Assembly: GCA_023150835.1 (NCBI GenBank)
Contig: JAKLKB010000016.1
Location: 1-64,000, forward strand
DNA from: Myxococcota bacterium
GTDB lineage: Bacteria > Myxococcota_C > UBA6777
Length of the DNA stretch: 64,000 nucleotides
Direction: 5' to 3'
In this document: positions 14,434 to 60,630 of the stretch, piece by piece
Position numbering within the stretch: position 1 is the stretch's first letter
Layout: every line of letters starts with the position of its first letter
Translations under genes and position numbers: made by a program
The notes under the pieces: model-generated
What the model saw: only the letters and a program-made list of their open reading frames with translations
The model's database searches: none
Told to the model about the DNA's origin: nothing

Positions 14434-14603
14434 CGCAAACTCCCACAACAACGGCCTTCCCAAACACACCGATCCTGAAAGGCCGATACACCGTTTCTGA
14501 AAGGCACAATACACTGATCTTGAAAGACACAATGCACCAACCGCGAAAAAGACGCCCCACACAGCACAAGGACTGTCCCTATGGCCTTCCCAGATCATCA
14601 AGA

Positions 14604-16772
14604 TCATCGCATCCAGATCCGACGCAACGCTCGATTCAGCCCATCCGCCACGTACAGCGAGCCTGAAAGCCACAAGATATCGGTGGGTTGATAGAATTGT
14701 GCGTCGAGTACGCCGCCATCTTTGTAACCCGGCGTCTTTCCGATCAGCGTGCTGACTTGGTTGGTGGCGGGGTCGAACTTGCGGATGCGATGGTTGTCGC
14801 GATCTGCGATGTACAAGGATCGTCCGTCCCATGCCAGCCCCATCGGAAAGCGAAACTTTGCGGATCCTGCGGTTCCATCGGTGAGGCCGAAACCACCCGC
14901 TGCCACCGTGAACACCTTCTTTGCGTTGAGATCGATCTTGCGGATACGATGGGATAAATAATCGCTTACGTACAGGTTTCCTTGACCGTCAAGCGCAAGT
15001 CCCAAAGGATAGTGAAACTGCGCAGTGGTCAACGAGGTGCCATCGCTCGTTCCCACTTTCCCGTTGCCCGCAAACGTCGAGACCTCGCCCAACAGCGTGA
15101 TCTGACGGATTCGGTTGTTCGCCATATCCGCAACATAAAACACCTTGGCATTCGCATCATAGACGATGCCTCGCGGAAAGTGGAACTGCGCTTTTTCTCT
15201 TGTTCCTTCTTTGTCCCCCAACGTCGACCCAGCAAACAAACCCACGCCCTTCGTCGGATCCACAAAGCGGATCTTGTGGTTCGAAGTATCCGAGATAAAC
15301 ACAACACGATTCGGCCCTTCGGCGATTCCACAAGGATCGGAAAGCTTGGCCGTGAGCGGATTGGCGCTATTTTGGTCCCCCACCACCGATCCCGCCCACG
15401 TCCCCGAAAGATTCGGTCCCGAAACCAACAGCACCTGATCTTTGTTGCGATCCCCAACCAACAAGCCTGTATGCGAAACATACCCCAGCGCGCAAGGATA
15501 GCTAAACGGCGAAGTGACGGCGGGCGCGATCGGCCCTGCCATCGTCGTCACATACGGAGTCTTGCGACAGCCCCCACCGACACAAAGCTCTCCCGCGAGA
15601 CAGGACTTTCCGCACGTTCCGCAATGACTGTTCGATTCTTTGAGATCGACGCATTCGCCTTTGCAATGTGCCAGCGCCGCGTTGGAACACACACAGGAGC
15701 CGCCCACGCAACTCGCGTTGCTCGCACAAGCATCCTCGCACTTACCGCAGTGCTTGGCGTCCGTCTTCACGTCGACACACTCTCCTTTGCACTCTTGCCG
15801 TCCACTCGCGCACGAGCACGCCCCATTTTGACAAGTCGCCCCCACCGAACAAACGCTGCCACACGCTCCACAATTCTTCGGATCGATCATCACATCCGCG
15901 CAGACGTTGGCACACGCAGTCGCTGGTTTGACACACGCAGACACACACGCACCACCTTGGCATAACGGCGCAGCATCCGCCCCACAAGACTGCCCACAGT
16001 CCCCACAATGCGAAGGATCCGTTCGGATATCGACGCAAATACCGCCACAATCTTTCTTGCTCCCCGCACATCCGCAAAATCCGTTGAGACATCCTTGATC
16101 GTTTCGACAAGCCTGACCACACTTCCCACAATGCCTCGGATCTTGCTTGGGATCCACACAAGACATCCCACAACGTATCTCCCCCGTTTTGCAAGGCGTT
16201 TGACACAGCCCGCCCGCACAGATTTGGCCCGACAAGCACGCGGCATCGCACACTCCGCAATGTTGCGCGCTCGCTTGGATATCCACACACACACCGCCAC
16301 ACAAACGCCCACCATTCGGGCAAGAACAGATCCCTCGCTGGCACACCTCAACGGCCTCACAAGCATTGTTGCACTGACCGCAATGCTTTGGGTCGGTTTG
16401 GGTATCGACGCAAGCGCCCGCGCAAAACCACTTCCCCTCCGCACAAGGATTCTCTGGCTCCGCCTCTTGGGCCTCTTGTTCGGTCAGTTCGCTTTCCACC
16501 CCAGTATCGGGTTTCTCTGGCGATTCCACTACAGCTTCTTGAGGCTCGACAGCGATCTGTTCTTCCGCACCGTAAGGCTCTGTTGTCGAAGCATCACCGC
16601 GCTTCCAAAACACACACAGCCCCTGTTCGCAATGCGCCCCAACACCGAGCTTTTCGCATTCTTTGTTTTCTTGGCAAGGCCACAAGGCGCTACCTTCGGG
16701 AAGTGTCGGAGATTGCGTACAGCCCCACCACACCACACCACAAAAAACACACCACGCAACCATTCGCCACAT
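14604..16772 (-). CDS. Paralogous Cys-rich repeat / NHL lipoprotein
   Basis: WWGC lipobox-like site, same repeats, YIADRDNHRIRK; AGGAG RBS. Confidence 0.85.
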   Translation of the reverse strand: MWRMVAWCVFCGVVWWGCTQSPTLPEGSALWPCQENKECEKLGVGAHCEQGLCVFWKRGDASTTEPYGAEEQIAVEPQEAVVESPEKPDTGVESELTEQEAQEAEPENPCAEGKWFCAGACVDTQTDPKHCGQCNNACEAVEVCQRGICSCPNGGRLCGGVCVDIQASAQHCGVCDAACLSGQICAGGLCQTPCKTGEIRCGMSCVDPKQDPRHCGKCGQACRNDQGCLNGFCGCAGSKKDCGGICVDIRTDPSHCGDCGQSCGADAAPLCQGGACVSACVKPATACANVCADVMIDPKNCGACGSVCSVGATCQNGACSCASGRQECKGECVDVKTDAKHCGKCEDACASNASCVGGSCVCSNAALAHCKGECVDLKESNSHCGTCGKSCLAGELCVGGGCRKTPYVTTMAGPIAPAVTSPFSYPCALGYVSHTGLLVGDRNKDQVLLVSGPNLSGTWAGSVVGDQNSANPLTAKLSDPCGIAEGPNRVVFISDTSNHKIRFVDPTKGVGLFAGSTLGDKEGTREKAQFHFPRGIVYDANAKVFYVADMANNRIRQITLLGEVSTFAGNGKVGTSDGTSLTTAQFHYPLGLALDGQGNLYVSDYLSHRIRKIDLNAKKVFTVAAGGFGLTDGTAGSAKFRFPMGLAWDGRSLYIADRDNHRIRKFDPATNQVSTLIGKTPGYKDGGVLDAQFYQPTDILWLSGSLYVADGLNRALRRIWMR

Positions 16773-16984
16773 CGAACGCTCCTGCTTAACCAAGCCGCCA
16801 AATCTCGGCTCCCTCTTTTGCTCTTATGGCACAAGACGCTTCTCGCGCCAAGGCTTTGCGCCTGCCTTCGCCCAACCTCCTACGCCCCACCAAAGACCCA
16901 CAGGCGCTTGCAAAAATCCCCAAGATGTGCTTTTTTCCCCTTCTTTCCTCCAACTTGACGGAGCGGACCTCGATTCTTATACGG

Positions 16985-34436: not shown

Positions 34437-36113
34437 TTATTGCGCTGCTGCTTGGGGGCTTTGCAACACGGTGCGAACAGAAAGGCCATCTTGCTCAAAG
34501 ACGACGCCCCATTCGAGCACCTCGACGTTTTTCGTGGTGGGGCGACTTGTTGCGGACGCACTTGCTTTTGTACTGCCACCCGAACGAACCCCTCCTGCTT
34601 CAAACAAGCGTCGAAGAAAGGCAAATGCTTTTTCGCTGCTTTTTGCATCAGACCGCGAACCCATCGGATCGAACCATCGGCGTAAAACCGAGGCTGTCAT
34701 CAACGGGATCACTGAAAAGTCGATCCGCAGCCTTCGATCGCGTTCAGATATCCGCATCGCGATCGGATCGAAGAAAGACCGTCGTTTGGACTCGTACTGT
34801 CCTCGCCATGCCTCATAAGCCTTCTTCTCCGCAGGTGTAATCCGCATGATCTCAAGTTCCCGCAAAGGCGTCATAAAGCGCAAACTTCCGTAATACTCCG
34901 AAAAGATCCGATCGCCTTCCAGCCACAAGCCGCCTCCATCGGGGATCTTCGGCACGATATCCAATCGTCGAGCCGTGTGTTTTCCTTGCAAGAGCATCGT
35001 TCGACGAAGGGCCGTCTGTTGGCGGATCTGCTCTCTTACCTGCGCTCGTCTCCATTGCAACACGCGGAGGTGTGGGCTTCCCAACAACCGCAACGCTTCG
35101 TCTCCCATCAACAAAAACACCCGCTCTTCCGAATCATACAGATAACGCATCCGAAAGAATCGGTACTGATCCAACGCAGCAAGCGATTCTTTCGGCTCGT
35201 AGCGTGCGTGGGCCACACGACGCAAAGCGGCCACCGAGTTGCTCAACGCCACCACATCCCCCATCACCATCACAAAAGACGATATCTCCCGATGCGCCGA
35301 AGCAACGCCCGCATACATCAGATCCTCGATCTCCCCTTGAACCTTCGTCACCACACGGCCCGTTGCAAAACATCGCAAAGCCTCGCGAAATCCCTTGGGA
35401 TCGCTTGTTTGAAACAGCAAGGTGATATCCGTCCCTTCGACGAAATCCACATCTCCCCCTGTCATCGCAACACCTCGGATCTTTTTGGAGGCTACAGACT
35501 TCGAGAACTCAACCACATCAAAACAAAGCTGGCGCTGGTATCGCCGCAACACACGAGAAACGATGTCTTGCCTTTCTGCCGACGTCTGCTTGCTTACGGC
35601 TCCCTTCGCCAAACGCCCTTCTTTCGAGGGCCTCTCCAAGCCTTGCGCAAAACGCCCATTTTCGGACAATATCGCCATCCCTTGCACAAAACGCCCATTT
35701 TCGGACAACATCGCCATCCCTTGCGCAAAGTGCCCAAACGACGGAAAGAACACAGCATATTGATCCTGCGGCAACAGCTTCGCCAGCTCGTCCACCGCGA
35801 TCTTTTTGCCAAAGATCGGCAGCGTAAAATTGTACGGCAAAAGATGAATCCCTCGGATATCTTGGATCGAGACTTCTGCTTTTTGTGGCGAACCAGCACC
35901 AGCATACGCAAGCATCGGCAACAAACAACACGCCCCCATCCACACCAAAACCACACAAGCCATCCACAGACGCAGCAAAAACAATCGATGTTCGGGGCAT
36001 ATCGCATCCTCCCATGCCCGAGCCGTCGGCCTACTCGCCTCCAAAACAACCTGCTCTCTTCTCACCAACATCCCGTTCCTCTCGATAAAAACAGCCAAAT
36101 AGATCCCATACAT
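34437..36113 (-). CDS. Hypothetical exported protein with 39-bp internal repeat
   Basis: Hydrophobic signal-like stretch; long ORF with protein-like composition. Confidence 0.6.
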   Translation of the reverse strand: MYGIYLAVFIERNGMLVRREQVVLEASRPTARAWEDAICPEHRLFLLRLWMACVVLVWMGACCLLPMLAYAGAGSPQKAEVSIQDIRGIHLLPYNFTLPIFGKKIAVDELAKLLPQDQYAVFFPSFGHFAQGMAMLSENGRFVQGMAILSENGRFAQGLERPSKEGRLAKGAVSKQTSAERQDIVSRVLRRYQRQLCFDVVEFSKSVASKKIRGVAMTGGDVDFVEGTDITLLFQTSDPKGFREALRCFATGRVVTKVQGEIEDLMYAGVASAHREISSFVMVMGDVVALSNSVAALRRVAHARYEPKESLAALDQYRFFRMRYLYDSEERVFLLMGDEALRLLGSPHLRVLQWRRAQVREQIRQQTALRRTMLLQGKHTARRLDIVPKIPDGGGLWLEGDRIFSEYYGSLRFMTPLRELEIMRITPAEKKAYEAWRGQYESKRRSFFDPIAMRISERDRRLRIDFSVIPLMTASVLRRWFDPMGSRSDAKSSEKAFAFLRRLFEAGGVRSGGSTKASASATSRPTTKNVEVLEWGVVFEQDGLSVRTVLQSPQAAAQ

Positions 36114-36600: not shown

Positions 36601-38628
36601 ATGTCATCCATCCGCCGATCAAATAACGACCAACAAGCCCAACAGGCCCGTCAGGCCCAACAAGCCCAACAAACCAAACAAGCGGCCCAAACCCAACAAA
36701 CCAAGCAAACCACCCCCGCCCAAAACACCTCCCCCCGCGATTCTTTTACCACCAAAAACGAGTCCAAAGGCAACATCCTCACAGGACGCACCACCACCAC
36801 CGAACGTTCCCACGAACTGAACGGTAGCAAGTACACCAGCGCCAACACCCAAACCACCGGCATCACCGGCAAATCGACCACGATGTCCAAAGGCGTCGAA
36901 CGCGCTGATGGCTCCTCCCAAAGCCGCGAAGTCAAAACCGATTACGGGATGCTTGGCAACAAAACGGGCGTCTCCACCACCAGCACCAAAAGCACCAGCG
37001 ATCTCACCGAAACCAACAAACTTTCCACCACCTACGCTCGCGACGGCAAAGTGACGTCCCAAAGCGCCAGCCAAAAACTCGAAGAAAACTACAAACTCGA
37101 CGACCTCAAACTGTCCACCTCCATCGAGTCCAAAACCTCCACTTCCGAAGCCAAAAATGGCGGTATCTTCGGCGAAAACAAACGCACCACCTCCAGCGAA
37201 ACCAACACGTCCAGCATCGAAGACAAAAACACCGCTCACTCCACTTCCGAAACCACCTCCAAAGAACAAGCCTTTGCTCGTGACGGCAAGATCACGATGT
37301 CCAAAGACACGCACACCCTCTCCGAAACCAACAAAAAAGATGGCAAAAGCACCACCTTTGAAACTTCTTCCGAAACCACCAAAACTCAAAGCCCCCGTGA
37401 CCGCGAGCTAACCTTCCAATCCACCACCGACAAAAGCACCACCGAACACAAAAATGGCTGGAAAACGGAATCCTCCACCACCAAAGAATCCGGCCAAAAG
37501 TTCACCACCACCGCCCAAAACGGCGAATCCAACACCAAGTTTGAAGACGGCAAACTCACCACCAAAGGCGGCTTTGAGTACAAAAACACCCACAGCAGCA
37601 CCAAAACCACCGTCTCCGCTGAACGCGAACTCTACAAAGGCAACGAAGACCTTCACAAACAACGCCAAGCCACCAACAAAAACATCTCCAACGCCCAATC
37701 CATCGCCAAAGAAGTCTTCGGCTCCAAAGAACTCAGCCCCAAGATCGACACCGACACCCACAAACGCTCCGAAACCATCAGCGCCGCTGGCTACGAACGC
37801 ACTGAAACCCACTCCGCCAATGCCTCGGTCTGGGAAAACCAAAAAGACTGGGTCAAAAGCGGCGATCTCGCCAAAGACGGCTACGAAGCGAAGCTCTCCA
37901 CCGATGTCAAAGTCCTCAACGCAAGCGGTTCTGCCACCACCAACGTCAAACTCGGCGGCCTCAACAACGAAGTCTCCGGCAAACTCAGCGGCCAACTCGC
38001 TGTCCTTGATGCCAACGTCTCTGGAAACTATACCAAATCCCTCGCCAAGATCGGCGATGCCGAGATCACCGCTGGCGTCGAAGGCAAAGGCCGCGCATTC
38101 GTCGGTGCTGACGGCTCCTTGGAAGGAAAAGTGACGGCATCGATCTATCCGCCCGAAGCTGCCGTCACTTTGAAAGGCGAAGCCTTTGCAGGGGCCAAAC
38201 TCGAAGGCGAAGTCAAAGGCCACGCGGGTCCGTTCTCTGTCACCGCTTCGGGTTCCTTGAATGCTGGCGCTGGCGTCGAAGGCGGTTTGGATGTCGGTCT
38301 CTCCGATGGAAAACTTCGCTTCCAAGCCAACTTGGGCGCAACCTTGGGCATCGGCGCGAGCGGCAATGTCGCTGTCGAAGTCGATGTCGCACAGATCGCC
38401 AAGATCGGCGTCGAAGGCGCAAAAGTCGTCGGCAAAGAGATCCACAAAGCCGCTGTCAACACCTTCGACGCAACAGGTGACGGCAAACTCGGACTCGATG
38501 ATGCCCGTGCCATCGGCAGCGCCGCCGTCAACACCGTCGGCCAAGGACTCAGCGATGCACGCGATGCCATCGGCTCGGGCTTGAGCAGCATGGGCAATAG
38601 CATCAGCAACGCCTTCTCTGGCTGGTGA
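36601..38628 (+). CDS. Thr/Ser/Lys-rich protein with Gly/Ala beta-strand C-terminal half; no Sec signal
   Basis: AAGGAG RBS; strongly C-ending codons like gap; Gln-rich N-terminus. Confidence 0.85.
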   Translation: MSSIRRSNNDQQAQQARQAQQAQQTKQAAQTQQTKQTTPAQNTSPRDSFTTKNESKGNILTGRTTTTERSHELNGSKYTSANTQTTGITGKSTTMSKGVERADGSSQSREVKTDYGMLGNKTGVSTTSTKSTSDLTETNKLSTTYARDGKVTSQSASQKLEENYKLDDLKLSTSIESKTSTSEAKNGGIFGENKRTTSSETNTSSIEDKNTAHSTSETTSKEQAFARDGKITMSKDTHTLSETNKKDGKSTTFETSSETTKTQSPRDRELTFQSTTDKSTTEHKNGWKTESSTTKESGQKFTTTAQNGESNTKFEDGKLTTKGGFEYKNTHSSTKTTVSAERELYKGNEDLHKQRQATNKNISNAQSIAKEVFGSKELSPKIDTDTHKRSETISAAGYERTETHSANASVWENQKDWVKSGDLAKDGYEAKLSTDVKVLNASGSATTNVKLGGLNNEVSGKLSGQLAVLDANVSGNYTKSLAKIGDAEITAGVEGKGRAFVGADGSLEGKVTASIYPPEAAVTLKGEAFAGAKLEGEVKGHAGPFSVTASGSLNAGAGVEGGLDVGLSDGKLRFQANLGATLGIGASGNVAVEVDVAQIAKIGVEGAKVVGKEIHKAAVNTFDATGDGKLGLDDARAIGSAAVNTVGQGLSDARDAIGSGLSSMGNSISNAFSGW

Positions 38629-38938
38629 TCCACCGCTTCCTACCCCAAACCACCCTGCTCTCTTCTGTCCTATCACCCGCCCGCACAACCCTCCTTGCTT
38701 CGCCGAAACTTTCTTCGCGCCTCCCCCTCTTCCACAACCTCTTTCTTTCTTCCACCATCCTATGCTACAACACGCAGCATTGACCGCTCTTTCTCGTCCA
38801 CACCAACCCAGTCCAGAGGCCACACACAAACCACCGCATTCCACCCGACGGATGGGCGTATCCATCACCCAACACCAATCTCTCCCGCACACTGAGGCGT
38901 TGGGCGCGAATGCCGATCACCACACACAGGAGCATCGG

Positions 38939-40324
38939 ATGTCCAATCCTTCTACTCTCAAGCAACAAGCCTACGAAAGACTCCAAGCACGCGACGCCGA
39001 AGGCGCACGCGCTCTCTTCCTCCAAGCCGCCGCCGAAGAGGGCATCCACCTCGATCTGCTCGTTCGCCGCGCCAATCAACACCTCCACGACGACCAAGTC
39101 CCCGAAGCTGCCCAACTCTACCTCCAGATCCTCGACGCCAACCCCACCGACAAAGACGCTCTCTTGGGCCTTGCGCGCATCTCCATGTTTGTCGGAAAGT
39201 TCGATGAAGCCGAATCCTACGCCACAGGCGCTCTCCGCGTCGCTCCCGACGAAGGCTTGGTCTACACCTTGTTTGGTCTCCTCCACGAATCCCGCAACCA
39301 ACTCGACCAAGCCGAACAACAGATGGCCAAAGGAGCCGATCTCAGCCCTCACGACTTCCTCCCCGTCTTCAATTATGGCCGTCTACTCGCTCTTTTGGAA
39401 CACTATGATCAAGCCATCCCCCTCCTGTTGCGCGCCACCGAGATCGACCCCCAACACTACGCTGCCTTCTACACTCTCGGCACCGCGCTCACCCTCAACG
39501 GCATGCACAAAGAGGCCGTCGCTGCCTTCAACCAAGCCATGAAGATCGCACCCAAAAACCTCGATGTCTACGCCACGCTCGCCGATGTCCTGCTCCGAAA
39601 CAAAGACCCCGAGATGGCTCTCCATATCCTCAACGCCGGCATGAACGAGTGTGGCGAACACCCTTCCCTCCTCGAAAAAGCCGCTGTCCTCTGCGTCGGC
39701 ACCAACAAGATCGCCAACGCCGTCCAATACTTCGAAAAGATCACACAACAACTCCCCACCTACGCCCAAGCTTGGCTCAACCTCGCCAACCTCTACATCC
39801 TCACACAAAATCTCGAAAAGTCCGAAACCGCCGCCAAACAAGTCCTCTCCTTCGACCCCAACAACTGGCAAGCCCACTACCACCTCGGCAACCTCTACGA
39901 AGTCCTCAACCTCCTCGACCGCGCCGAAGCCTCCCTCCGAAAAGCCTCCGACCTCGCACCCAACGATACCCGTCCTTGGAGCAACTTGGGCCTCGTCCTT
40001 CTTCGACAAGACGACACCTTCAAAACCAAAGAAGCCATCCACATCCTCGAAAAAGCCGTCGAGATCGCACCACCCAACGAATTCCGACCCGCCTACAACC
40101 TCGCCCTCGCCCTCGTCAAAGACAACCGCACCGCCCGTGCCCGCGAACTCCTCAAAGAACTCGAAACCAAAGTCCCCCAAGACAACGAGGCTTGGGATGA
40201 ACTCCAACACCTCCAACACACCCTCTTCTCCGATGCCGATGCCGTCAAAATGAATCTCGCCATCTCCTCGATGATGTGGGACGCTCGACGCAAAGCCAAA
40301 AAAGACGACGACTCCCAAGAATAA
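38939..40324 (+). CDS. All-TPR protein
   Basis: Tandem TPR motifs along the whole length; AGGAG RBS. Confidence 0.9.
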   Translation: MSNPSTLKQQAYERLQARDAEGARALFLQAAAEEGIHLDLLVRRANQHLHDDQVPEAAQLYLQILDANPTDKDALLGLARISMFVGKFDEAESYATGALRVAPDEGLVYTLFGLLHESRNQLDQAEQQMAKGADLSPHDFLPVFNYGRLLALLEHYDQAIPLLLRATEIDPQHYAAFYTLGTALTLNGMHKEAVAAFNQAMKIAPKNLDVYATLADVLLRNKDPEMALHILNAGMNECGEHPSLLEKAAVLCVGTNKIANAVQYFEKITQQLPTYAQAWLNLANLYILTQNLEKSETAAKQVLSFDPNNWQAHYHLGNLYEVLNLLDRAEASLRKASDLAPNDTRPWSNLGLVLLRQDDTFKTKEAIHILEKAVEIAPPNEFRPAYNLALALVKDNRTARARELLKELETKVPQDNEAWDELQHLQHTLFSDADAVKMNLAISSMMWDARRKAKKDDDSQE

Positions 40325-40397
40325 CCCCCCTTTCTGCATACAGCACATTCTCCTTCCTTCATTCCTTCATCTCATACAACGAAAGGCAAGATGACCG

Positions 40398-41924
40398 ATG
40401 ACGACTTGGTCGAATGGCTATCGAACCGATGTCACTTATACACACGGTGTGTATCGAGAGATGACCCCGTTGCTTTTGGATTATGCTTCTTTGTGCCGAG
40501 GATACTTGCCCTTGCGCGAAGAAGAAAGCTTTACTTTCTGCGAGCTTGGATGCGGACATGGCGTCACGACCAGCCTTTTGGCCGCCGCCAATCCTCAAAG
40601 CGCCTTTTACGCCAACGACTTCAACCCCAACCATATCGCCACCGCACGCCATACCACCCAAGTAGCGGGACTTTCCAATATCGACTTTTACGATGATAGC
40701 TTTCAAGATTTTCTCCATGCTGATCTTCCGACTTTTGATTATATCGTTTTGCATGGAGTCTATTCTTGGGTCGCCGAACGCGAACGCAAAGCCATCCAAG
40801 CCTTTATCGAAAAGAAGCTACGCCCCGGTGGATTGGTCTATATCAGCTACAACACGCTCCCGGGCTGGGCCGCCCTTATGCCGATGCGCCAACTGATGGT
40901 CCAATACGCACAACGCTCCACCGCCGCCACTTGGCCGCAAAAGGTCCAAGACGCCTACCACCAGATCAAAGACCTCGCCAACCGCGATGTCCGCTTCTTT
41001 GAAGCCAACCCCGCAGCACGCCAATGGATCACCGATATCGAAGGCTCCGACCTCAACTACCTCCCCCACGAATACCTCAACGCCGCTTGGGAACCCATGT
41101 ACTTCAGCCAGATCGCCCGCGAACTCGCCGAGGCCAAAGTCAGCTACCTCGGACCCGCCTCCCAACTCGATCAGCTCGACTTTCTGAACCTCAACAACAG
41201 CACCATCGACGAACTCGCTTCCCTCCAAGATATCCCTTTCCGCGAAGATATCCGTGACTTCTACGTCAACCGCCGTTTTCGCAAGGATATCTTTGCGCGG
41301 GGCCTCTTTCCTCTCCCTGACGCCGAACAGATCGAATACCTTTCCTCGATGCGCTTTGTCCTCGCTGTCGCCCGTGAAACCGTCTCTTTGGAGCATCGCT
41401 TTACTGTCGGAACCCTGACGCTGTTGGCCCATGTCTACGAACCCATCGTCGATCTTCTTGCCCAAGGCCCCACATACCTCAGCGAGATCGTCGCCTTCAT
41501 GCACGAAAAAGGCGTCGAATCCAGCAAAGTCCACCAAGCACTGCGCTTGTTGACGGGCCTTGGCTACACCATGCCCCTTGTCTCCGAAGCCACCGTCGAT
41601 GCTCGCAAACAAAGCACCGACCGCTTTAATTCCTTTGTCATCTACCGCTCTCGCTTTTATAGCCAGATCAACTACCTCGCTTCTCCTCTGACGGGTGGCC
41701 CTGTGCATCTTAGCCGCATCTCACAGCTTTTCTTACTCGCCGAACGCGAACAACGCGAACCCATCGACCTGATCTGGGGCCTGCTTTCTTCCCAAGGCCA
41801 AACCATGATCAAAGACGGCGTAAGCCTCGAAACTCCCGAAGAAAATATCGCTTGGCTCCAAGAACTTCACGCCGAATTCCACCGCATGACCTTGCCTGCT
41901 CTGCATCGCCTTGGCATCGAATAG
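40398..41924 (+). CDS. Class I SAM methyltransferase with regulatory domain (rickettsial PKMT-like)
   Basis: CELGCGHG, FDYIVLHGVYSWV, GLVYISYNTLPGW, YLPHEYLN, RRFRKDIF. Confidence 0.85.
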   Translation: MTTWSNGYRTDVTYTHGVYREMTPLLLDYASLCRGYLPLREEESFTFCELGCGHGVTTSLLAAANPQSAFYANDFNPNHIATARHTTQVAGLSNIDFYDDSFQDFLHADLPTFDYIVLHGVYSWVAERERKAIQAFIEKKLRPGGLVYISYNTLPGWAALMPMRQLMVQYAQRSTAATWPQKVQDAYHQIKDLANRDVRFFEANPAARQWITDIEGSDLNYLPHEYLNAAWEPMYFSQIARELAEAKVSYLGPASQLDQLDFLNLNNSTIDELASLQDIPFREDIRDFYVNRRFRKDIFARGLFPLPDAEQIEYLSSMRFVLAVARETVSLEHRFTVGTLTLLAHVYEPIVDLLAQGPTYLSEIVAFMHEKGVESSKVHQALRLLTGLGYTMPLVSEATVDARKQSTDRFNSFVIYRSRFYSQINYLASPLTGGPVHLSRISQLFLLAEREQREPIDLIWGLLSSQGQTMIKDGVSLETPEENIAWLQELHAEFHRMTLPALHRLGIE

Positions 41925-42001
41925 ACACCAACACGGGGCCAAGTGGGCCGTGACAAGGAAGCGGGCCGCTACCACGCCCCACAAAATAAGCCAACTGCAT
42001 C

Positions 42002-42094
42002 ATACGATCTCCGCCTGTTTCGCACACGAAAAACGTAGAAACCCCCTGTGGCTGCCCGACCACAGGGCGTCTACAGCTTCTCTCGAATATCGTA
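42002..42094 (+). mobile_element. MITE-like element, family A (short form)
   Basis: ATACGATCTCCG / CGAATATCGTA ends; CCCCCTGTGGCTGCCC..GGGCGTCTAC core. Confidence 0.65.
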
Positions 42095-42125
42095 GAAGCC
42101 CCGTCCTAAAAAGAAAGAAAGCAAA

Positions 42126-42893
42126 ATGTCCGAATCCATCGAATCTTTACGCAAACGCGCAGCCGAAGCACTCCAAGTACGCGACCTTGAGACGGCCCGT
42201 CAACTCTACGAAGAAGCTGCCGCTGAACAAGGCTTTGATATCCAAGCCACCTTACGACAAGGTCTGATGCTTTTGGAAGGAAAGTCTTTTCAAGAAGCCG
42301 TCGCGCTTTTGCTGCGTGTCGTCGAAGCCTGCCCGCTCGAAGTGGATGCTTTGCTTGGTCTGACACGCGTCTCGCTTTTTCTCGGTCGCCTCCAAGACGC
42401 CGAAAACTACCTCGTCGGAGCCAAACATCTCGCCCCTGAACACGGGGTGGTGTACGCCCTACAAGGTCTTTTGCACGAGATCAAAGGTCAACTTGCCGAA
42501 GCCTTGGCTTGCGCAGAACAAGCCGCCGCCCTTCAACCCAACGACTTCCTTGTCTCCTTCAATTATGGCCGACTCTTGGGCCAAGATCGCCGTTACGAAC
42601 AGGCTGCCGAACAACTCTTACAAGCCATTAAACAAAAGCCTGATAGCTACGAAGCCCATTACGCGCTGGGCATTACCTACGTCCAACGCGGCCTTTTGAC
42701 ATCCGCCATCGCGATCTTTGAGACCGCCCTCAAACTCGCCCCCACCGATCCTGACGCTTACGCCACTCTCGCCGATGTCCTTGTCCGCGCCAATGATCCC
42801 GCCCAAGCCCGCGAAGTCCTTGACGAAGGCATCCGCTTTTGCGGCCCTCATCCCGGACTCCTCCAAAAACGCGACACCCTCCCAACCGCATAA
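42126..42893 (+). CDS. TPR protein paralogous to the N-terminal half of 38939-40324
   Basis: Shared DALLGL.R.S.F.G, DFL..FNYGRLL, YATLADVL.R and CG.HP.LL.K. Confidence 0.9.
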   Translation: MSESIESLRKRAAEALQVRDLETARQLYEEAAAEQGFDIQATLRQGLMLLEGKSFQEAVALLLRVVEACPLEVDALLGLTRVSLFLGRLQDAENYLVGAKHLAPEHGVVYALQGLLHEIKGQLAEALACAEQAAALQPNDFLVSFNYGRLLGQDRRYEQAAEQLLQAIKQKPDSYEAHYALGITYVQRGLLTSAIAIFETALKLAPTDPDAYATLADVLVRANDPAQAREVLDEGIRFCGPHPGLLQKRDTLPTA

Positions 42894-42924: not shown

Positions 42925-44523
42925 TCAAAGATCGGTACATCCCGACAAGCATGAGACAGCTTGCGTTTGTGCAGCAGTAAAAGGCTTGTCTTTCAGCGGA
43001 ATCCTCGGTTGCTGTAGCAGGAGAACGACCACAGTCGTTCCCCCCAACAACACCAGAAGCCCACCGGCACCAAATAAGATATCTGCCGCGATCACTTTAT
43101 GATAACCATCCATCCACGGGCGGCTGATCTGCACAGCCGTCACCTCTGCGGCACTCACTTTCCCTTGGCTCTCTGCAAAGTCCTTCGATCCCAACGCACC
43201 CAGACCGATCCCTGTCCCGATCGCAAGAACCCCCACCCCCGCAACCACCCAACCCGCAACCAGCAGCGGAGAGATCGGTTTCGGCAGTGGTTTCGGGCGG
43301 CTTCGCGGCTTGGAGGCAAGCTGCAATGCCGCCAACATCGTGCGTGCGCTTTGCTGACGCGCAGCTGTTTTTGTGCTCTTGTGGGCGAGGTATCTTTGCA
43401 ACAGCACGATCGCCTGTTTTTGGGAAGGCGGTTTCTTTTCTTGCGCAAACACCCGCCCTCGCCAGTACAACAGCTCTCCTTGGATCTCCAAGACTTCTTT
43501 TCCCATCCCCTTCACTTCTTCTTCTGCTTCTCGAAAAAAAGAAAGAGCTTGCTCCCCTGCCCCTTCTCTTACCGCCTCGATTCCTCTTTGCATAAACAAG
43601 GTTGCGCTCTCGATCCGAACGACCTGTTCTTCTTCTTCGGCTTTTTTTTGCCAAAAGATCCGAAGTTCCTGTTTTTTGATTTTTTGCAGCAATTTTTTCG
43701 CATTTTGATAAAGCAACAGCTTTTCCGAAGATCCGCCCGCAGTTTTGGCCTCCAATCGAAAAGAACGTGCTTCAAAAAGATGATACAACGAGCTTTTGGA
43801 GACATCCTGATTTTTCCAGCCCAACACTAATTTATAACGCGGCAACCATCGCGTCATCTCCAAAAGCCGTTCTTTTTCAAAGGCTAAACCCAACATCCGC
43901 AACACTTGCTCATGCGCAAGATGTTCCAATCGCGGAACCGAGGCTTTGACGGTCTTTTCTAGCGACTCAACTCGACCCACACTCGACTTCACATAACTTT
44001 CCCACAACTGCTTTGCTTGCGTCCAGTGTTCCCAACCTCCGATCGAATAATGGCAAAATCCTAAATAAAATCGTAAACCATTACGAAACGGTTCCCACTT
44101 TTCTTCTCGCGGCAACAAGATCCGAGCGCTTTGAAACAATTCCAGCGCCGCGTCGTATCTCTTTTCCGAATACGCTTGCATCCCTTTTGAATAGGCTTCG
44201 ATCGCTGGATGAGATTGCGCAAACGCACGCCCTGAATCCGATCCCACCCCAAACAAAAAAACGACAAAGCAACAGAAACGAAGCAGCCCACCAAAAAAGC
44301 CGCGCCCGCGCCCATCCAAGCGACACCGTTGTCTGTGTGGAAAACGCTGCTCTCTTCGCTGGTATGGGCCCAAAAGGGCGGCGCTCCCTTGCGGGGCGTG
44401 GAGCAGAGTCCCACAAAAACGGTCCAACCACGCCATCGCAAAACAACGCCGCGCTCGTTGTAACGTCCCCAAAAAGCAACTGCTTGTTTTTCTGTGCTTT
44501 ACTTGGTCGTTTTTCTGATTCAT
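42925..44523 (-). CDS. TPR-like exported protein with C-terminal Gly-rich TM hairpin; start uncertain
   Basis: AYSKGMQAYSEKRYDAALELFQSA; GWVVAGVGVLAIGTGIGLG..ADILFGAGG tail; lies directly downstream of the kinase. Confidence 0.7.
   Translation of the reverse strand: MNQKNDQVKHRKTSSCFLGTLQRARRCFAMAWLDRFCGTLLHAPQGSAALLGPYQRREQRFPHRQRCRLDGRGRGFFGGLLRFCCFVVFLFGVGSDSGRAFAQSHPAIEAYSKGMQAYSEKRYDAALELFQSARILLPREEKWEPFRNGLRFYLGFCHYSIGGWEHWTQAKQLWESYVKSSVGRVESLEKTVKASVPRLEHLAHEQVLRMLGLAFEKERLLEMTRWLPRYKLVLGWKNQDVSKSSLYHLFEARSFRLEAKTAGGSSEKLLLYQNAKKLLQKIKKQELRIFWQKKAEEEEQVVRIESATLFMQRGIEAVREGAGEQALSFFREAEEEVKGMGKEVLEIQGELLYWRGRVFAQEKKPPSQKQAIVLLQRYLAHKSTKTAARQQSARTMLAALQLASKPRSRPKPLPKPISPLLVAGWVVAGVGVLAIGTGIGLGALGSKDFAESQGKVSAAEVTAVQISRPWMDGYHKVIAADILFGAGGLLVLLGGTTVVVLLLQQPRIPLKDKPFTAAQTQAVSCLSGCTDL
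44290..44420 (+). mobile_element. Degenerate family B element inside the 5' part of ORF 42925-44523
   Basis: CAAGCGACA..TTGTCTGTGTG.AAAAC..GCTCTCTTCGC..CCCTTGCGGGGCGTGG..CCCACAAAA aligns with 4620-4741. Confidence 0.65.
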
Positions 44524-47163: not shown

Positions 47164-49500
47164 ATGAAATCTGTGTGGCGGGTCTGTTGGCTGCTCTTGT
47201 GTTGGAACTTCTTGACGTGCGCCCCACCGCCACCTCCCGATCTGGATCTTTATCCCTGCGAACAAGACTCCGATTGCCAACTCCCCAACGGGCGGATACT
47301 TCAATGTTGCCAAGATCAAAGCCTTCGCCGATGTTGCGTCCCCAACCAAGACTATTGCTGTCGCTCGGATGGAAAGCCCCAGATCTGCCCGATATCTCCG
47401 CCTTATCCACCTCAAACACCTTGTCAAGACGGAAAGCTCTCTTTCGATGGCACCCGATGGAACCCTTGCCTTGGCGCTGTCTCTGAACAAAAAGAGCGCT
47501 GCAACGGCCTCGATGACGATTGCGACGGCCAGATCGACGAAGATTGGCCCCTCAAAGGCACCCGCTGTTTTGTCGGGCCTCCTCTCTCCAATTGCGAAGT
47601 CGGCGGGTCTTGGATCTGCGATCCTTCCGACCCAAACGAGCTGATCTGTTCTGCGCGGCAACCACTCACTTCTTCTGCAAGCATCGAGATCTGCGACAAC
47701 AAAGACAACGATTGTGACGGAAGCGCTGAACAAAAAGCCTGCTATCCGCCTTCTTCAGGGCAATGCCCTTTCCCCGTCGACGCCAAACAAGAATGTTGCC
47801 GCTTCTTCGTTCGTAGCAGCGAGGAATGTGTGGGTTGCGTCCTTGCCCAAAACCAAACACCTTCTGATCGCTCTTCCGCTTATCTCTGTCACGGCCTTTG
47901 TCAGGCAGGCATACAACGTTGTTCCTCCGATCAAACCTTTGGCGAGTGCAACCAACCCATCCTCCCAAAGCCCGAAGAATGCGACAACAAAGACAACGAC
48001 TGTGACGGCCTTGTCGACGAAGGTTGCCCATGCGATCAGATCGGCGCTTTCCGACCCTGTTATCAAGGACGCCCGGGAACCCTCGGATGGTCGGGAGATC
48101 CACGCGATCCTCTTCGCCTTGCCTTGCTCTATACCTTTGGAACACTCGGACGTATCGGCGCAACCTGCCGATTTGGCATACAAAAGTGCATCGCAGACGC
48201 CAGCGGTCGACGCCGTTGGGATCACCAATGCGTCCAACAGATCACCAACGAAACCAAAGACTGCACCTCTCCCCAAACACCCGACAACAACTGCGATGGA
48301 CATGTGGACCCGCAAACCCCCTCTTGCCCTTGCACTGAGGGCACACAACGCCTCTGCTACACCGGCCCTATTGGAACTGAGTACAAAGGCATCTGTACAA
48401 CAGGCACACAATCCTGCAAAGACGGTCGATGGACTTCTTGCGAGGGACAAAAAACCCCTTCGCTGCTTGAGATCTGCGGCAATCTCCAAGACGACAATTG
48501 CAACGGGCTGATCGATGAGTTCTGTCCCTGCCAGCCAGAACAAACACCACTCTCTTGCTACACGGGACCCCCACAAACGCTCGACCCTTCCACCCAAAAA
48601 CCGCGTGGAAACTGCAAAGCAGGGAAACAATCTTGTTTTAAAACCCCCGATGGTCGGAGTTATTGGGAAGCCAAGTGCGAAGGCCAGATCACGCCCACCC
48701 CAGAGTCTTGCAACGCCCAAGACGACGACTGCGACGGCCAAGTCGACAACATACACGTGCTCGACAACGACACCTTTCGCTCTGTACCGCTCCAACGCAG
48801 ATGCTCTTACATCGAACCCGATCCAGCCAAAAAGACCGAAGGCATCGGCCTTTGCAAAGCAGATTATCAGCAGTGCCGCGACGGCGCATGGACTCCTTGC
48901 CAAGGCGGCCAATCCCCCCGCCCCGATATCTTCGGACGCGCCTGCTCATCCGCCAGCACCAAAGAACCCGACACCAATTGCGACGGACTCAGCGAACCCT
49001 GTTGCCCGAACAATTGTAGTGCCGGAGACGAGTGTGCGCCTTGTGGCGTCTCCCGCTGCGAACGGAACTCTTGTAGCACCAAGTGCCCTGACAACTGCGC
49101 CTCCGACAACGACTGCCTCAAAACTGTTTGCGCGGACAAGATCTTTTGCATCAACAGCCGCTGCAACAGCCGACCCTACGCTTGTTCCGACACTCCTTGC
49201 TCTTCCAACAACGACTGCTACTGCCGCCCCAAATACAACCTCTGCCTCTTGGGGCGATGTGTTCACCCAGATATCTGCCCAACCACTTGCAGCCGCGACG
49301 AAGATTGCAACCAACACCCCGCCTGCCTAAGCCAACAACGCAACGAATGTGTCCAAGGTATTTGTGCCTCTCGTGAGCGTGGCTTTCCTGCTTGCCCAGC
49401 CCAATGCACCGATCACGAAGCCTGTCAAGTCCCCGCTTGTGGAGAACGCCTCGCTTGCCTCCAAGGCTCCTGCCAAAAAATCCCCCCACTCCCCCCCTAA
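47164..49500 (+). CDS. Cys-rich lipoprotein with E.C.xxDxDCDGxxDE (MopE-related putative metal-binding) repeats
   Basis: FLTC lipobox-like site; CNGLDDDCDGQIDE, CDNKDNDCDGLVDE; C-terminal CxxDxDC repeats. Confidence 0.85.
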   Translation: MKSVWRVCWLLLCWNFLTCAPPPPPDLDLYPCEQDSDCQLPNGRILQCCQDQSLRRCCVPNQDYCCRSDGKPQICPISPPYPPQTPCQDGKLSFDGTRWNPCLGAVSEQKERCNGLDDDCDGQIDEDWPLKGTRCFVGPPLSNCEVGGSWICDPSDPNELICSARQPLTSSASIEICDNKDNDCDGSAEQKACYPPSSGQCPFPVDAKQECCRFFVRSSEECVGCVLAQNQTPSDRSSAYLCHGLCQAGIQRCSSDQTFGECNQPILPKPEECDNKDNDCDGLVDEGCPCDQIGAFRPCYQGRPGTLGWSGDPRDPLRLALLYTFGTLGRIGATCRFGIQKCIADASGRRRWDHQCVQQITNETKDCTSPQTPDNNCDGHVDPQTPSCPCTEGTQRLCYTGPIGTEYKGICTTGTQSCKDGRWTSCEGQKTPSLLEICGNLQDDNCNGLIDEFCPCQPEQTPLSCYTGPPQTLDPSTQKPRGNCKAGKQSCFKTPDGRSYWEAKCEGQITPTPESCNAQDDDCDGQVDNIHVLDNDTFRSVPLQRRCSYIEPDPAKKTEGIGLCKADYQQCRDGAWTPCQGGQSPRPDIFGRACSSASTKEPDTNCDGLSEPCCPNNCSAGDECAPCGVSRCERNSCSTKCPDNCASDNDCLKTVCADKIFCINSRCNSRPYACSDTPCSSNNDCYCRPKYNLCLLGRCVHPDICPTTCSRDEDCNQHPACLSQQRNECVQGICASRERGFPACPAQCTDHEACQVPACGERLACLQGSCQKIPPLPP

Positions 49501-59024: not shown

Positions 59025-60422
59025 CTAAGGCGCGGTCGAGCAGCGCGAGCGTACGCACGTGGTCAATCCTTTGGAATAACAGTCATTTCTTTTGCACTCG
59101 GTATCGCTGAAACAAGAGGAAGGACAAAGACAAGTATCGTCAGGGATCCCGTCGCAATCTTCGTCGACGCCGTTTCCAGTCTGCCCAGCCCCGCATTGTT
59201 CGGGCTTTGGCGTAATCTCGCCTAAACAATTGCTCCATTTTCCATCGATACACTCGCGATATCCAGAAGAACAAGGCGGATTTTTCGGATGAACGGAAGA
59301 GCACTCTACCCGAAGGACGCCTCCTGATGGCCGATTGTCCACTCTTCCATCGCAGTCGTCATCGAACCCGTTGCACTCTTCTTCTTTTGGCTTATCGAAC
59401 TCGCATACGACCCGACCATCGATACATTTGGGGACTCCTGTCGCGCAAGCACCGAGCTTTTGCGTATCCTTGCAGACTCCCGTTGGATATTCAGGAAAAT
59501 ACCACGGAGGCTCGTCGGTTTGACCGTCGTCGTTGTTGTCTTTGCCATCGCACAACTCCAGGCGACAAAAAGCCCCGTTATCGATTTTCCCGTCGCAGTC
59601 ATCATCGATCTTGTTTCCGCAGATCTCTTCTTTCGGAGTGATCGCTCCACGACACGGCTCCCATCGACCATTTTCGCAGTATTGCCCACCCACAGCACAA
59701 GGCCCCTTGCATTCGTAATCTGCGCCGCCTCGCAGCACGCATCCTGCGGTGTCTGCGGGGTAGCAAGGGCGGAACAGCAGACTTAGATACTCTTTCCCAT
59801 ACGGATCTTTTTTCTTGACTCGGTCGATCAATCCGTCACAATCGTCGTCTTCGTTGTTGCACTCTTCGGGCTTTGGAAGGATCTGCTCACGGCAGGCCGT
59901 CCACTTTCCATCCTGACAGTTGCGGATGCCGCCTTTGCATCGCGCCCCGTCACGCAGCGTTCCTTCGGGTCCGTCGTAGCAACTTTGCGGCGTATCGGGG
60001 TCGAGTCCTTCGTCGATCTGGCCGTCGCAATTGTCGTCGTGACCGTTGCAATCTTCCTCCACAGCTTTGCAGACATATCTCCCGCCTTCGCAACGTTGAA
60101 CACCACAGGACTTGTCGTACTTAGGCGTGGAAGAGCAAAGGATCTCGCCTTCTTTTTTTTGGGGGATCAGCCCTTCATCGATCTGGCCGTTGCAGTTGTT
60201 GTCCAGACCGTCGCAGATCTCCTCACCGATCGGTACTTTTGTAGACTGGCAGATCCCAAGCGTGCTTGGATCGCTGTCGCGCTTACAGCAAAACAAGCCA
60301 GAGCCAAAAGCCCCCAAACACTCTTCGCTGTGTTGGCACTTTCGCCCTTGCAAGCGCAACTCCTCCACCGCTGGGGATATCGTGCAACTCCACAGCAAAA
60401 AAACAAACCAGCCACAAGCCAT
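59025..60422 (-). CDS. Cys-rich lipoprotein with DxDCDG (MopE-related) repeats, paralogous to 47164-49500; start may be slightly upstream
   Basis: LWSC; EICDGLDNNCNGQIDE, PKPEECNNEDDDCDGLID, CYDGPEGTL. Confidence 0.85.
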   Translation of the reverse strand: MACGWFVFLLWSCTISPAVEELRLQGRKCQHSEECLGAFGSGLFCCKRDSDPSTLGICQSTKVPIGEEICDGLDNNCNGQIDEGLIPQKKEGEILCSSTPKYDKSCGVQRCEGGRYVCKAVEEDCNGHDDNCDGQIDEGLDPDTPQSCYDGPEGTLRDGARCKGGIRNCQDGKWTACREQILPKPEECNNEDDDCDGLIDRVKKKDPYGKEYLSLLFRPCYPADTAGCVLRGGADYECKGPCAVGGQYCENGRWEPCRGAITPKEEICGNKIDDDCDGKIDNGAFCRLELCDGKDNNDDGQTDEPPWYFPEYPTGVCKDTQKLGACATGVPKCIDGRVVCEFDKPKEEECNGFDDDCDGRVDNRPSGGVLRVECSSVHPKNPPCSSGYRECIDGKWSNCLGEITPKPEQCGAGQTGNGVDEDCDGIPDDTCLCPSSCFSDTECKRNDCYSKGLTTCVRSRCSTAP

Positions 60423-60630
60423 CTTGAAGTACAGGCTGCGTCGCCTCTTTGCTTTCACCCAAGCACCATCCTTCCCACGCTCCGAGAGATCCCATACAGA
60501 CCACTCTCCCAAAGACTCACGACACGATCCGTTTCACACAGGCCCCTATCTTAGCCTGCTTTGTTTGGAAAACAACCTCTTTCTTCTGCAACAAAACGAT
60601 GACAACCTTTTTCACCCACAAGCCCAAGGA

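Follow-up and report, generated by a model that had tools for sequence, protein, structure and literature searches.

A PKMT-family methyltransferase and a duplicated TPR protein beside a conserved myxobacterial gene pair

The substrates that have been shown experimentally for methyltransferases of the PKMT type, which modify protein lysines, fall into two classes only: rickettsial outer-membrane proteins (PMC8232902), of which OmpB, the substrate of PKMT1 and PKMT2, is one, and AtaA, a trimeric autotransporter of Acinetobacter sp. Tol 5 (Inoue et al., PMC11784438; both sources are cited here and below for their available text). AtaA is the one giant fibrous protein for which the methyltransferase KmtA is specific, and it carries more than 130 methylated lysines; OmpB and AtaA are both long, β-rich, lysine-rich and fibrous (PMC11784438). 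How enzymes of this type choose their targets is not understood, and there is no consensus site (PMC11784438).

Here we analyse a locus of four co-oriented genes in a 64,000-nucleotide stretch of DNA (positions 1 to 64,000 of contig JAKLKB010000016.1, assembly GCA_023150835.1; hereafter the window) from an uncultured activated-sludge lineage, the relatives of which are labelled Myxococcota or Myxococcales. The genes encode a threonine-, serine- and lysine-rich protein (A), a protein made of tetratricopeptide repeats (TPR1), a PKMT-family methyltransferase (MT) and a second, shorter TPR protein (TPR2). An initial annotation, made from the letters of the DNA, had called the four open reading frames (ORFs) on the plus strand, and all four are present where it placed them. 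The locus brings together an enzyme, its candidate dedicated substrate and a candidate adaptor that derives from the partner protein of this substrate; substrate recognition is therefore testable with three recombinant proteins. In the literature on PKMT and OmpB, sll1526, KmtA and AtaA, and myxobacterial lysine methylation, neither this combination of genes nor the A family was found described.

Conservation of the A–TPR1 pair

Scanning one genome per species gave 33 loci that carry the C-terminal domain of A, in Archangium, Cystobacter fuscus, Vitiosangium and other Myxococcota assemblies. The presence of TPR and MT genes at these loci was scored by tblastn, ORF clustering being confounded by long antisense ORFs in high-GC DNA. 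A full-length TPR1 homologue (434–461 amino acids (aa), 36–95% identity) lies no more than 2 kb from the A homologue in 27 of the 33 loci, 23 times downstream on the same strand and four times divergently; the window's genus contributes two of these 27. The remaining six comprise five loci without a TPR partner and one with a weak TPR match 9.6 kb away. The retention of the pair at 27 loci ties the TPR proteins specifically to A. Full-length A is confined to the window's genus; paralogues of its C-terminal ~230 residues were found in each of the family's five other genomes, and a sample of 35 genomes from across the domain yielded none.

MT is present at two of the 33 loci, both in the window's genus. 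Neither MT nor TPR2 was found in three sister-genus genomes (completeness 86–94%), and five other whole genomes with the A–TPR pair yielded no PF10119, a domain of MT. In the two other genomes of the genus (97% and 76% identity), the genes again run A–TPR1–MT–TPR2. Around the pair the neighbourhood varies: apart from the TPR protein, no neighbour is common to six related loci, and no synteny beyond the pair was found between the window and either the sister-genus locus or the paralogous locus of the same genome. The four genes had been taken for a single module, with conserved synteny suggested as a check. The outcome is divided: A and TPR1 are linked across the family and form the core, and the linkage of MT and TPR2 holds only within the genus.

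Other genes recur next to A homologues. In a clustering of 36 loci (the 33 above together with L005, L009 and L010), a gene for a cell-wall hydrolase (four PG_binding_1 plus CHAP; L037 12081–13565, minus strand) lies convergently just downstream of the A–TPR pair or of a lone A in nine. At three of the six loci outside the paired set (L046, L048 and L050), an ORF of ~780 aa for a Ser/Thr kinase starts within 0.5 kb downstream of the A homologue, with the kinase domain at ~12.4–13.4 kb. Kinases are very common in these genomes; this one may be an alternative partner for a TPR-less A subfamily.

TPR1 and TPR2

The domain scan confirms TPR1 as an all-TPR protein. Among solved structures, the best natural matches of a profile of the TPR partners are the TPR arrays of OGT, SPINDLY, CDC27 and PEX5 (OGT, E = 4.7e-57), and consensus designed TPRs outscore OGT. 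TPR1, MT and TPR2 are all cytoplasmic by sequence, and no hydrophobic N-terminal or transmembrane segment was found in any of the four proteins. TPR1 is probably a dedicated cytoplasmic partner that holds or escorts A. A complex prediction for TPR1 with residues 346–675 of A (score 0.00, mark 0.32) speaks neither for nor against binding.

TPR2 had been recognized as a duplicate of the first half of TPR1, and the two proteins indeed align at 45% identity over 242 ungapped residues (E = 5e-64). In a tree of TPR N-terminal halves, TPR2 falls inside the clade of the lineage's own A-partner TPRs (support 95/91) on a long stem (0.89), which marks it as a local, fast-evolving duplicate; by this phylogeny, TPR2 arose by duplication within the host lineage. 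Each of the three genomes of the genus retains an intact and conserved TPR2 (72–97% identity).

The methyltransferase

MT carries the motifs by which it was first noticed, HGVYSWV (residue 119), YISYNTLPGW (148) and HEYL (224). It consists of a class I methyltransferase domain (Methyltransf_12/31/25/11, residues 45–153), with ELGCGHG at residue 49 as the GxGxG loop, and of PF10119 (MethyTransf_Reg, dimerisation; residues 220–301, E = 1.6e-24, 86.9 bits against a cut-off of 25.5). The best solved relatives found with phmmer are PKMT2 (5DOO, E = 7.2e-29) and PKMT1 (5DNK, E = 5.7e-25). The single MT sequence aligns to the PKMTs only over its N-terminal part, to about residue 300–320. A profile of MT and 25 homologues aligns over positions 11–492 to residues 41–540 of PKMT1 (E = 1.7e-46), and the homology therefore covers the middle and C-terminal domains. 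This comparison, which the initial annotation had suggested as a check, upholds its view of MT as PKMT-like.

Asp74 and His119 of MT show no variation among 26 homologues and correspond in the alignment to the AdoMet-contacting Asp and His of PKMT1/2; the hydrogen-bonding residues are Asp102 and His146 in PKMT1 and Asp74 and His118 in PKMT2 (PMC11784438). Phe75, also invariant in the 26 homologues, stands where PKMT1 has Leu103, a residue that affects the Km for OmpB. Because KmtA is likewise not conserved at this position (PMC11784438), Phe75 sets the Rickettsia type apart and is no bar to family membership.

Outside the genus, the nearest relatives of MT are 40–44% identical over the full length and come from the cyanobacterial Geminocystis, Cyanobacterium and Synechocystis (sll1526) and the alphaproteobacterial Niveispirillum. 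Cyanobacterial homologues fall only in cluster A of KmtA (PMC11784438), and since its nearest named relatives are cyanobacterial, MT probably belongs to this cluster, as judged from the taxonomy of those relatives. PMC7801250 was considered as a characterization of sll1526 and rejected, the enzyme of that paper being CpcM. No fused or longer form of the enzyme (890–2,540 aa) was found at E ≤ 1e-10, which speaks weakly against TPR–PKMT fusions. We consider it likely, with good confidence, that MT is a protein-lysine methyltransferase; by analogy with the family enzymes, its predicted activity is the multiple methylation of lysines of an exported surface protein.

Protein A

The composition first ascribed to the 675-residue protein A is borne out (13.0% Thr, 11.9% Ser and 9.3% Lys), as is the lack of a Sec signal: within the first 60 residues, the maximum Kyte–Doolittle value over 12 residues is −0.82. 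A contains no cysteine, and all 31 aligned family members are likewise Cys-free. It has no Pfam or NCBIfam match, and sequence searches against the Protein Data Bank (PDB) returned nothing significant.

An AlphaFold2 model built with 31 family sequences (mean pLDDT 64; residues 60–260 at 85–96) predicts a short polar N-terminal helix, then an antiparallel β-meander of ~18 strands (residues 48–343) and a helix. The C-terminal half is predicted to form a Gly/Ala-rich domain with five strands of 24–30 residues (455–595), followed by helices up to the C terminus. The structural matches of the whole model are outer-membrane barrels (Z 11–17), with MtrB at the top (Z = 16.9, root mean square deviation (r.m.s.d.) 4.6 Å over 260 residues). 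The meander is, however, very polar and rich in Thr, Lys, Ser and Glu, only 32 of its 218 strand residues being Val, Ile, Leu, Met, Phe, Trp or Tyr; the barrel scores therefore reflect topology only, and a membrane barrel was rejected for A.

Folded alone, the C-terminal domain reaches a pLDDT of 70–80 in its core. This model has no convincing solved match: the best score by VIA is Z = 8.0 (at an r.m.s.d. of 12.8 Å), and Foldseek returned nothing at E ≤ 0.001. The weak top Foldseek rows, with a probability of at most 0.14 and thus a lead only, are the pore-state membrane attack complex, pleurotolysin and gasdermin. ESM Atlas gave only unnamed clusters for the C-terminal domain (≤0.87) and no usable match for the β-meander.

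In the family alignment, the N terminus reads M-[ST]-[RK]-[IV] and is followed by a Ser/Asn-rich stretch; PP.A, AGPF, SAGA, DGKL and VEVDV.QI are invariant, and one or more D..GDGKL..D loops are conserved. The tails are built of repeated amphipathic helical units and end in W-F-G-W, W-L-P-W or S-G-W. In A itself, the loop DATGDGKLGLDD (residues 623–634) is EF-hand-like by eye, and the helical aromatic tail ends in SGW. A Pfam scan of 40 representatives gave an EF-hand above cut-off in 16, sub-threshold apolipoprotein-type matches in two, Snf7 in one and nothing in 21; to EF-hands in the PDB, the C-domain profile has sub-threshold matches only (E = 0.12 or worse). A may bind Ca2+.

The C-domain profile finds 682 cluster representatives (50% identity clusters) at E ≤ 0.001, 78 of them at E ≤ 1e-30. 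The locus thus exposes an unnamed and fairly large family with a fixed TPR partner, Cys-free aligned members and all-or-none lysine. One distant member, P0283 (936 aa), joins a Snf7/ESCRT-III-type domain (277–353) to an A-family C-terminal domain (640–803).

Lysine use in the A family

Lys outnumbers Arg in the MT-linked A (63 against 21) and in its orthologue within the genus (68 against 25). A second A–TPR pair of the same genome, without MT (contig C57; L009 634–2262; L057), encodes an A protein of 543 aa with 3 Lys and 27 Arg and a TPR partner with 24 Lys and 19 Arg. An Archangium gephyra homologue (L039 8891–10786, 632 aa) contains 95 Arg but no Lys, and its TPR neighbour 34 Lys and 17 Arg; for a further A homologue the counts are 15 Lys and 71 Arg, against 43 Lys and 13 Arg in the adjacent TPR protein. 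Because the TPR neighbours of lysine-poor A proteins keep normal lysine, lysine in this family is under protein-specific selection.

Among 115 family representatives of at least 400 aa, five contain less than 1% Lys and 25 contain at least 10%; sister-genus members, which lack MT, have 4.1–5.4%. Lysine use in the family is bimodal, with 0–3 Lys in some members and 9–14% in others. MT stands beside the lysine-rich paralogue and not the lysine-poor one, which fits A as its substrate, although this placement represents one acquisition event only.

Proposed function

In the explanation that we favour, A is proposed to be an abundant, β-sheet-rich structural protein and, with TPR1, would form a two-gene core module conserved in myxobacteria. 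A PKMT-family enzyme would have been acquired horizontally and inserted directly behind the pair in the window's genus alone, arriving with TPR2, which is a copy of half of the partner TPR of this lineage. TPR2 may keep the A-binding surface of TPR1 and present A to MT, which would mono- or multi-methylate many of the 63 lysines of A, in the way that OmpB is methylated by PKMT1/2 and AtaA by KmtA. A is a reasonable candidate substrate because it is lysine-rich and β-rich, as are OmpB and AtaA, and lies beside the enzyme. The joint claim that A is the main substrate of MT and TPR2 the adaptor is put forward tentatively; we judge its chances to fall a little short of even. This account retains from the initial annotation the PKMT-like enzyme and A as its candidate substrate, and gives up the unity of the four genes and their link to a type III secretion system (T3SS).

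Several observations weigh against this proposal. In all other lineages examined, the pair does without the enzyme, and methylation is therefore not intrinsic to its function. The acquisition of MT is a single event in one genus, so that the conserved gene order counts as one observation. Most Lys-rich members of the family (up to 14% Lys) have no methyltransferase nearby, and high lysine content thus needs no such enzyme by itself. A lacks a signal peptide, unlike the known PKMT substrates, which are outer-membrane proteins exported through Sec. The closest named relative of MT, sll1526, has no known substrate to lend support, being described as uncharacterized in the available text of PMC6560206. 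Finally, both the methylation and the protein contacts are ones that we infer.

Export of A by a one-step route is plausible from the absence of cysteine and of a signal peptide and from the conserved termini. No secretion genes were found in the window or in six related loci. With regard to the RTX/type I route, A has no HemolysinCabind (GGxGxD repeat) Pfam match, and no neighbouring ABC transporter with a membrane-fusion protein was found in the window or the six loci.

We also entertain, as an improbable extension, that free lysine is a liability on an exposed fibre or coat, that some lineages purge it, and that the window's genus captured a PKMT with a TPR adaptor and so could retain a lysine-rich paralogue with its lysines methylated. 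Threats to the exposed lysines might include lysine-directed proteases, cross-linking and the ubiquitin systems of protist grazers.

Alternative explanations

MT could methylate lysines of proteins other than A, for instance of outer-membrane proteins in general as in Rickettsia, and be a neighbour of A by chance, with TPR2 a truncated duplicate that has no adaptor role. We regard this as rather unlikely, while taking it seriously. It agrees with the absence of MT from 31 of the 33 loci and from the five whole genomes that carry the pair, and with an origin of MT from outside, among relatives in cyanobacteria and alphaproteobacteria. The host genome is rich in repeats and mobile elements, one of which lies inside the locus, and rickettsial PKMTs methylate several outer-membrane proteins (PMC11784438). 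A chance neighbour accords less well with a gene order that survives within the genus down to 76% protein identity and with the spacing of just 11 nucleotides (nt) between MT and TPR2 in a relative. Nor does a functionless TPR2 explain why the gene shows no decay in any of the three genomes, and the enzyme adjoins the lysine-rich paralogue, not the nearly lysine-free one.

A second alternative, which we consider improbable, is that A is not exported at all. It would then be a cytoplasmic, Ca2+-responsive protein that associates with membranes or lipids through its Gly/Ala-rich amphipathic sheet and its aromatic-tailed C-terminal helix, with the TPR protein regulating assembly and methylation tuning it in one genus. 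The lack of a signal peptide and of a transmembrane segment in A, and the cytoplasmic character of TPR1, MT and TPR2, agree with this, as do the family tails of repeated amphipathic helical units ending in W-x-G-W or W-L-P-W. The weak, sub-cut-off apolipoprotein-type matches in two of the 40 representatives, and the one representative with a Snf7/ESCRT-III domain, point the same way. However, the absence of cysteine in all 31 aligned members and the protein-specific removal of lysine fit exposed or exported proteins better, and no structural match to known membrane-binding folds was obtained for A.

Slightly more improbable still is the version of the initial annotation, in which A is a type III substrate (a translocator, effector or filament) and the TPR proteins are class II-like chaperones. 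A is Cys-free like all 31 aligned members, has no signal peptide, and shows the conserved N terminus M-[ST]-[RK]-[IV] with its Ser/Asn-rich stretch; a dedicated cytoplasmic TPR partner adjoins it, and SctV occurs in its own genome and in all five other pair-carrying genomes. The TPR proteins themselves do not behave as such chaperones. Class II T3SS chaperones are small proteins of ~150 aa with three TPRs, encoded in the T3SS cluster beside the translocators, whereas the TPR partners of A are 434–461 aa long. Against TIGR02552 (LcrH/SycD), TPR1 scores 59.1 and TPR2 45.8 bits, far under the cut-off of 104.8; against SctY, the scores are 44.2 and 26.6 bits for a cut-off of 70. The 60 solved structures that the TPR profile matches best include no T3SS chaperone.

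The genomic context does not favour a type III substrate either. The search for T3SS genes that had been suggested found none among the 30 window proteins scanned or the 83 ORFs of six related loci. The SctV homologues of the host genome are on contigs C131 and C25, not C136, and those of the other five genomes lie megabases away or on other contigs; as each of the six genomes searched has SctV, finding it together with the pair is non-discriminating. The appeal to the T3SS of Myxococcus also falls away, the organism being not Myxococcus but a member of the uncultured sludge lineage.

That MT methylates a small molecule, a sugar or a nucleic acid is highly improbable: the weak sub-threshold NCBIfam matches to BioC and UbiG, and the names 'O-methyltransferase' or 'trans-aconitate methyltransferase' that some sources give to homologues, stand against full-length homology to PKMT1 that includes the non-catalytic domains, and the only two characterized branches of this architecture are both protein-lysine methyltransferases (PMC11784438).

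Locus organization and expression

The coordinates of the locus are collected in Table 1. Gene A starts at an ATG preceded by AAGGAG 7 nt upstream. The TPR1 ORF is open from 38762 (520 aa); its start was placed further downstream because of an AGGAG ribosome-binding site at that point and the N termini of 26 homologues. In the spacer between A and TPR1, the block TGCTACAACACG is kept in all three genomes of the genus although the remaining spacer has diverged, and may be a regulatory site. A consensus scan for promoters and terminators gave nothing exceeding the shuffled expectation.

Table 1 Features of the locus, in window coordinates
Feature	Position	Strand	Description
Gene A	36601..38628	+	675 aa; 63 Lys; candidate methylation substrate
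Conserved block TGCTACAACACG in A–TPR1 spacer	38763..38775	+	From alignment of three genomes; possible regulatory site
TPR1	38939..40324	+	461 aa; all-TPR; cytoplasmic by sequence; conserved partner of the A family
Methyltransferase (MT)	40398..41924	+	508 aa; PKMT-family, SAM-dependent; class I fold plus PF10119
Insertion with dispersed repeat and GC-rich hairpin core	41927..42112		No counterpart in the 97%-identical relative
TPR2	42126..42893	+	255 aa; truncated, fast-evolving in-lineage duplicate of the N-terminal half of an A-partner TPR

The gap between MT and TPR2 measures 201 nt in the window against 11 nt in the 97%-identical relative, the difference being an insertion of 186 nt that carries a dispersed repeat. 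The core of the insertion, a GC-rich hairpin of ~36 nt, has 54 matches in the host genome and is tandem in places.

Gene A is covered by RNA-library contigs at 95–100% identity in four wastewater or bioreactor studies, and in run X1 the contigs additionally cover all of TPR1, MT and TPR2. These are contigs from libraries that possibly hold DNA and indicate presence only: their depth cannot rank the genes, and neither an operon structure nor an expression ratio is drawn from them. MT is uncovered in three of the four RNA runs. No RNA contig bridges A to TPR1, and in three of the four runs (X1, X13 and X16) the contigs break between ~38796 and 38886.

The locus is flanked by two ORFs without a Pfam or NCBIfam match, at 42925–44523 (minus strand, 532 aa) and 34437–36113 (minus strand, 558 aa); the former is conserved in the 97% relative, where it adjoins a Ser/Thr kinase gene. 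Elsewhere in the window, at 12130–16793 (minus strand), 47164–49500 (plus strand) and 59025–60512 (minus strand), are two adjacent large Stig1-like, Cys-rich proteins with NHL repeats and two proteins with MopE-type metal-binding motifs, near which many ORFs of 400–900 aa have no Pfam match. A phylum-level search of the genome set returned only six genomes, in three genera, for the host lineage, which is apparently ranked as a separate, very small and deep lineage.

Comparison with known systems

The closest described system is that of Rickettsia, PKMT1/PKMT2 and OmpB (5DNK, 5DOO). MT is of the same family, with the class I SAM fold, PF10119 and the conserved Asp and His, and the candidate substrate A is long, β-rich and lysine-rich. 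However, A is no autotransporter and lacks a signal peptide, and MT lies in a putative operon with its candidate substrate and the TPR genes. MT also differs from PKMT1 in having Phe instead of Leu after the catalytic Asp, and pairwise similarity extends only over the N-terminal ~300 residues. The organism is a free-living sludge bacterium, so that shielding from host ubiquitin does not readily suggest itself as the purpose.

KmtA and AtaA bring the comparison nearer to the habitat of the window's lineage: KmtA is a PKMT-family enzyme from an environmental bacterium of activated sludge (PMC11784438). AtaA, unlike A, is exported by Sec and the type V route; the available text of that source describes no TPR partner and does not describe kmtA as adjoining ataA (PMC11784438).

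For A itself, the single-layer β-sheet of Borrelia OspA offers a likeness in the predicted fold, the polar N-terminal meander superposing on it at Z = 10.3 (r.m.s.d. 3.5 Å over 160 residues). The two have no sequence relationship, A has ~18 strands, and its Z scores are higher (to 16.9, MtrB) with the curved sheets of outer-membrane barrels.

The arrangement of A and TPR1 resembles that of T3SS translocators and their class II TPR chaperones (LcrH/SycD, IpgC), in that a cytoplasmic TPR protein adjoins a Cys-free, signal-less protein with an amphipathic, possibly membrane-active domain. It differs in that TPR1 is three times longer, fails the family cut-offs and is not T3SS-linked, and in that A lacks a hydrophobic transmembrane segment.

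For the role proposed for TPR2, the O-GlcNAc transferase, in which a TPR array recruits protein substrates to a modifying enzyme, serves as a working analogy; the similarity is of a generic TPR type, and at this locus the enzyme and the TPR protein are not joined in one polypeptide. On the improbable reading of free lysine as a liability, the locus would be the first operon-encoded PKMT–adaptor–substrate system and a free-living counterpart of the rickettsial lysine-shielding strategy.

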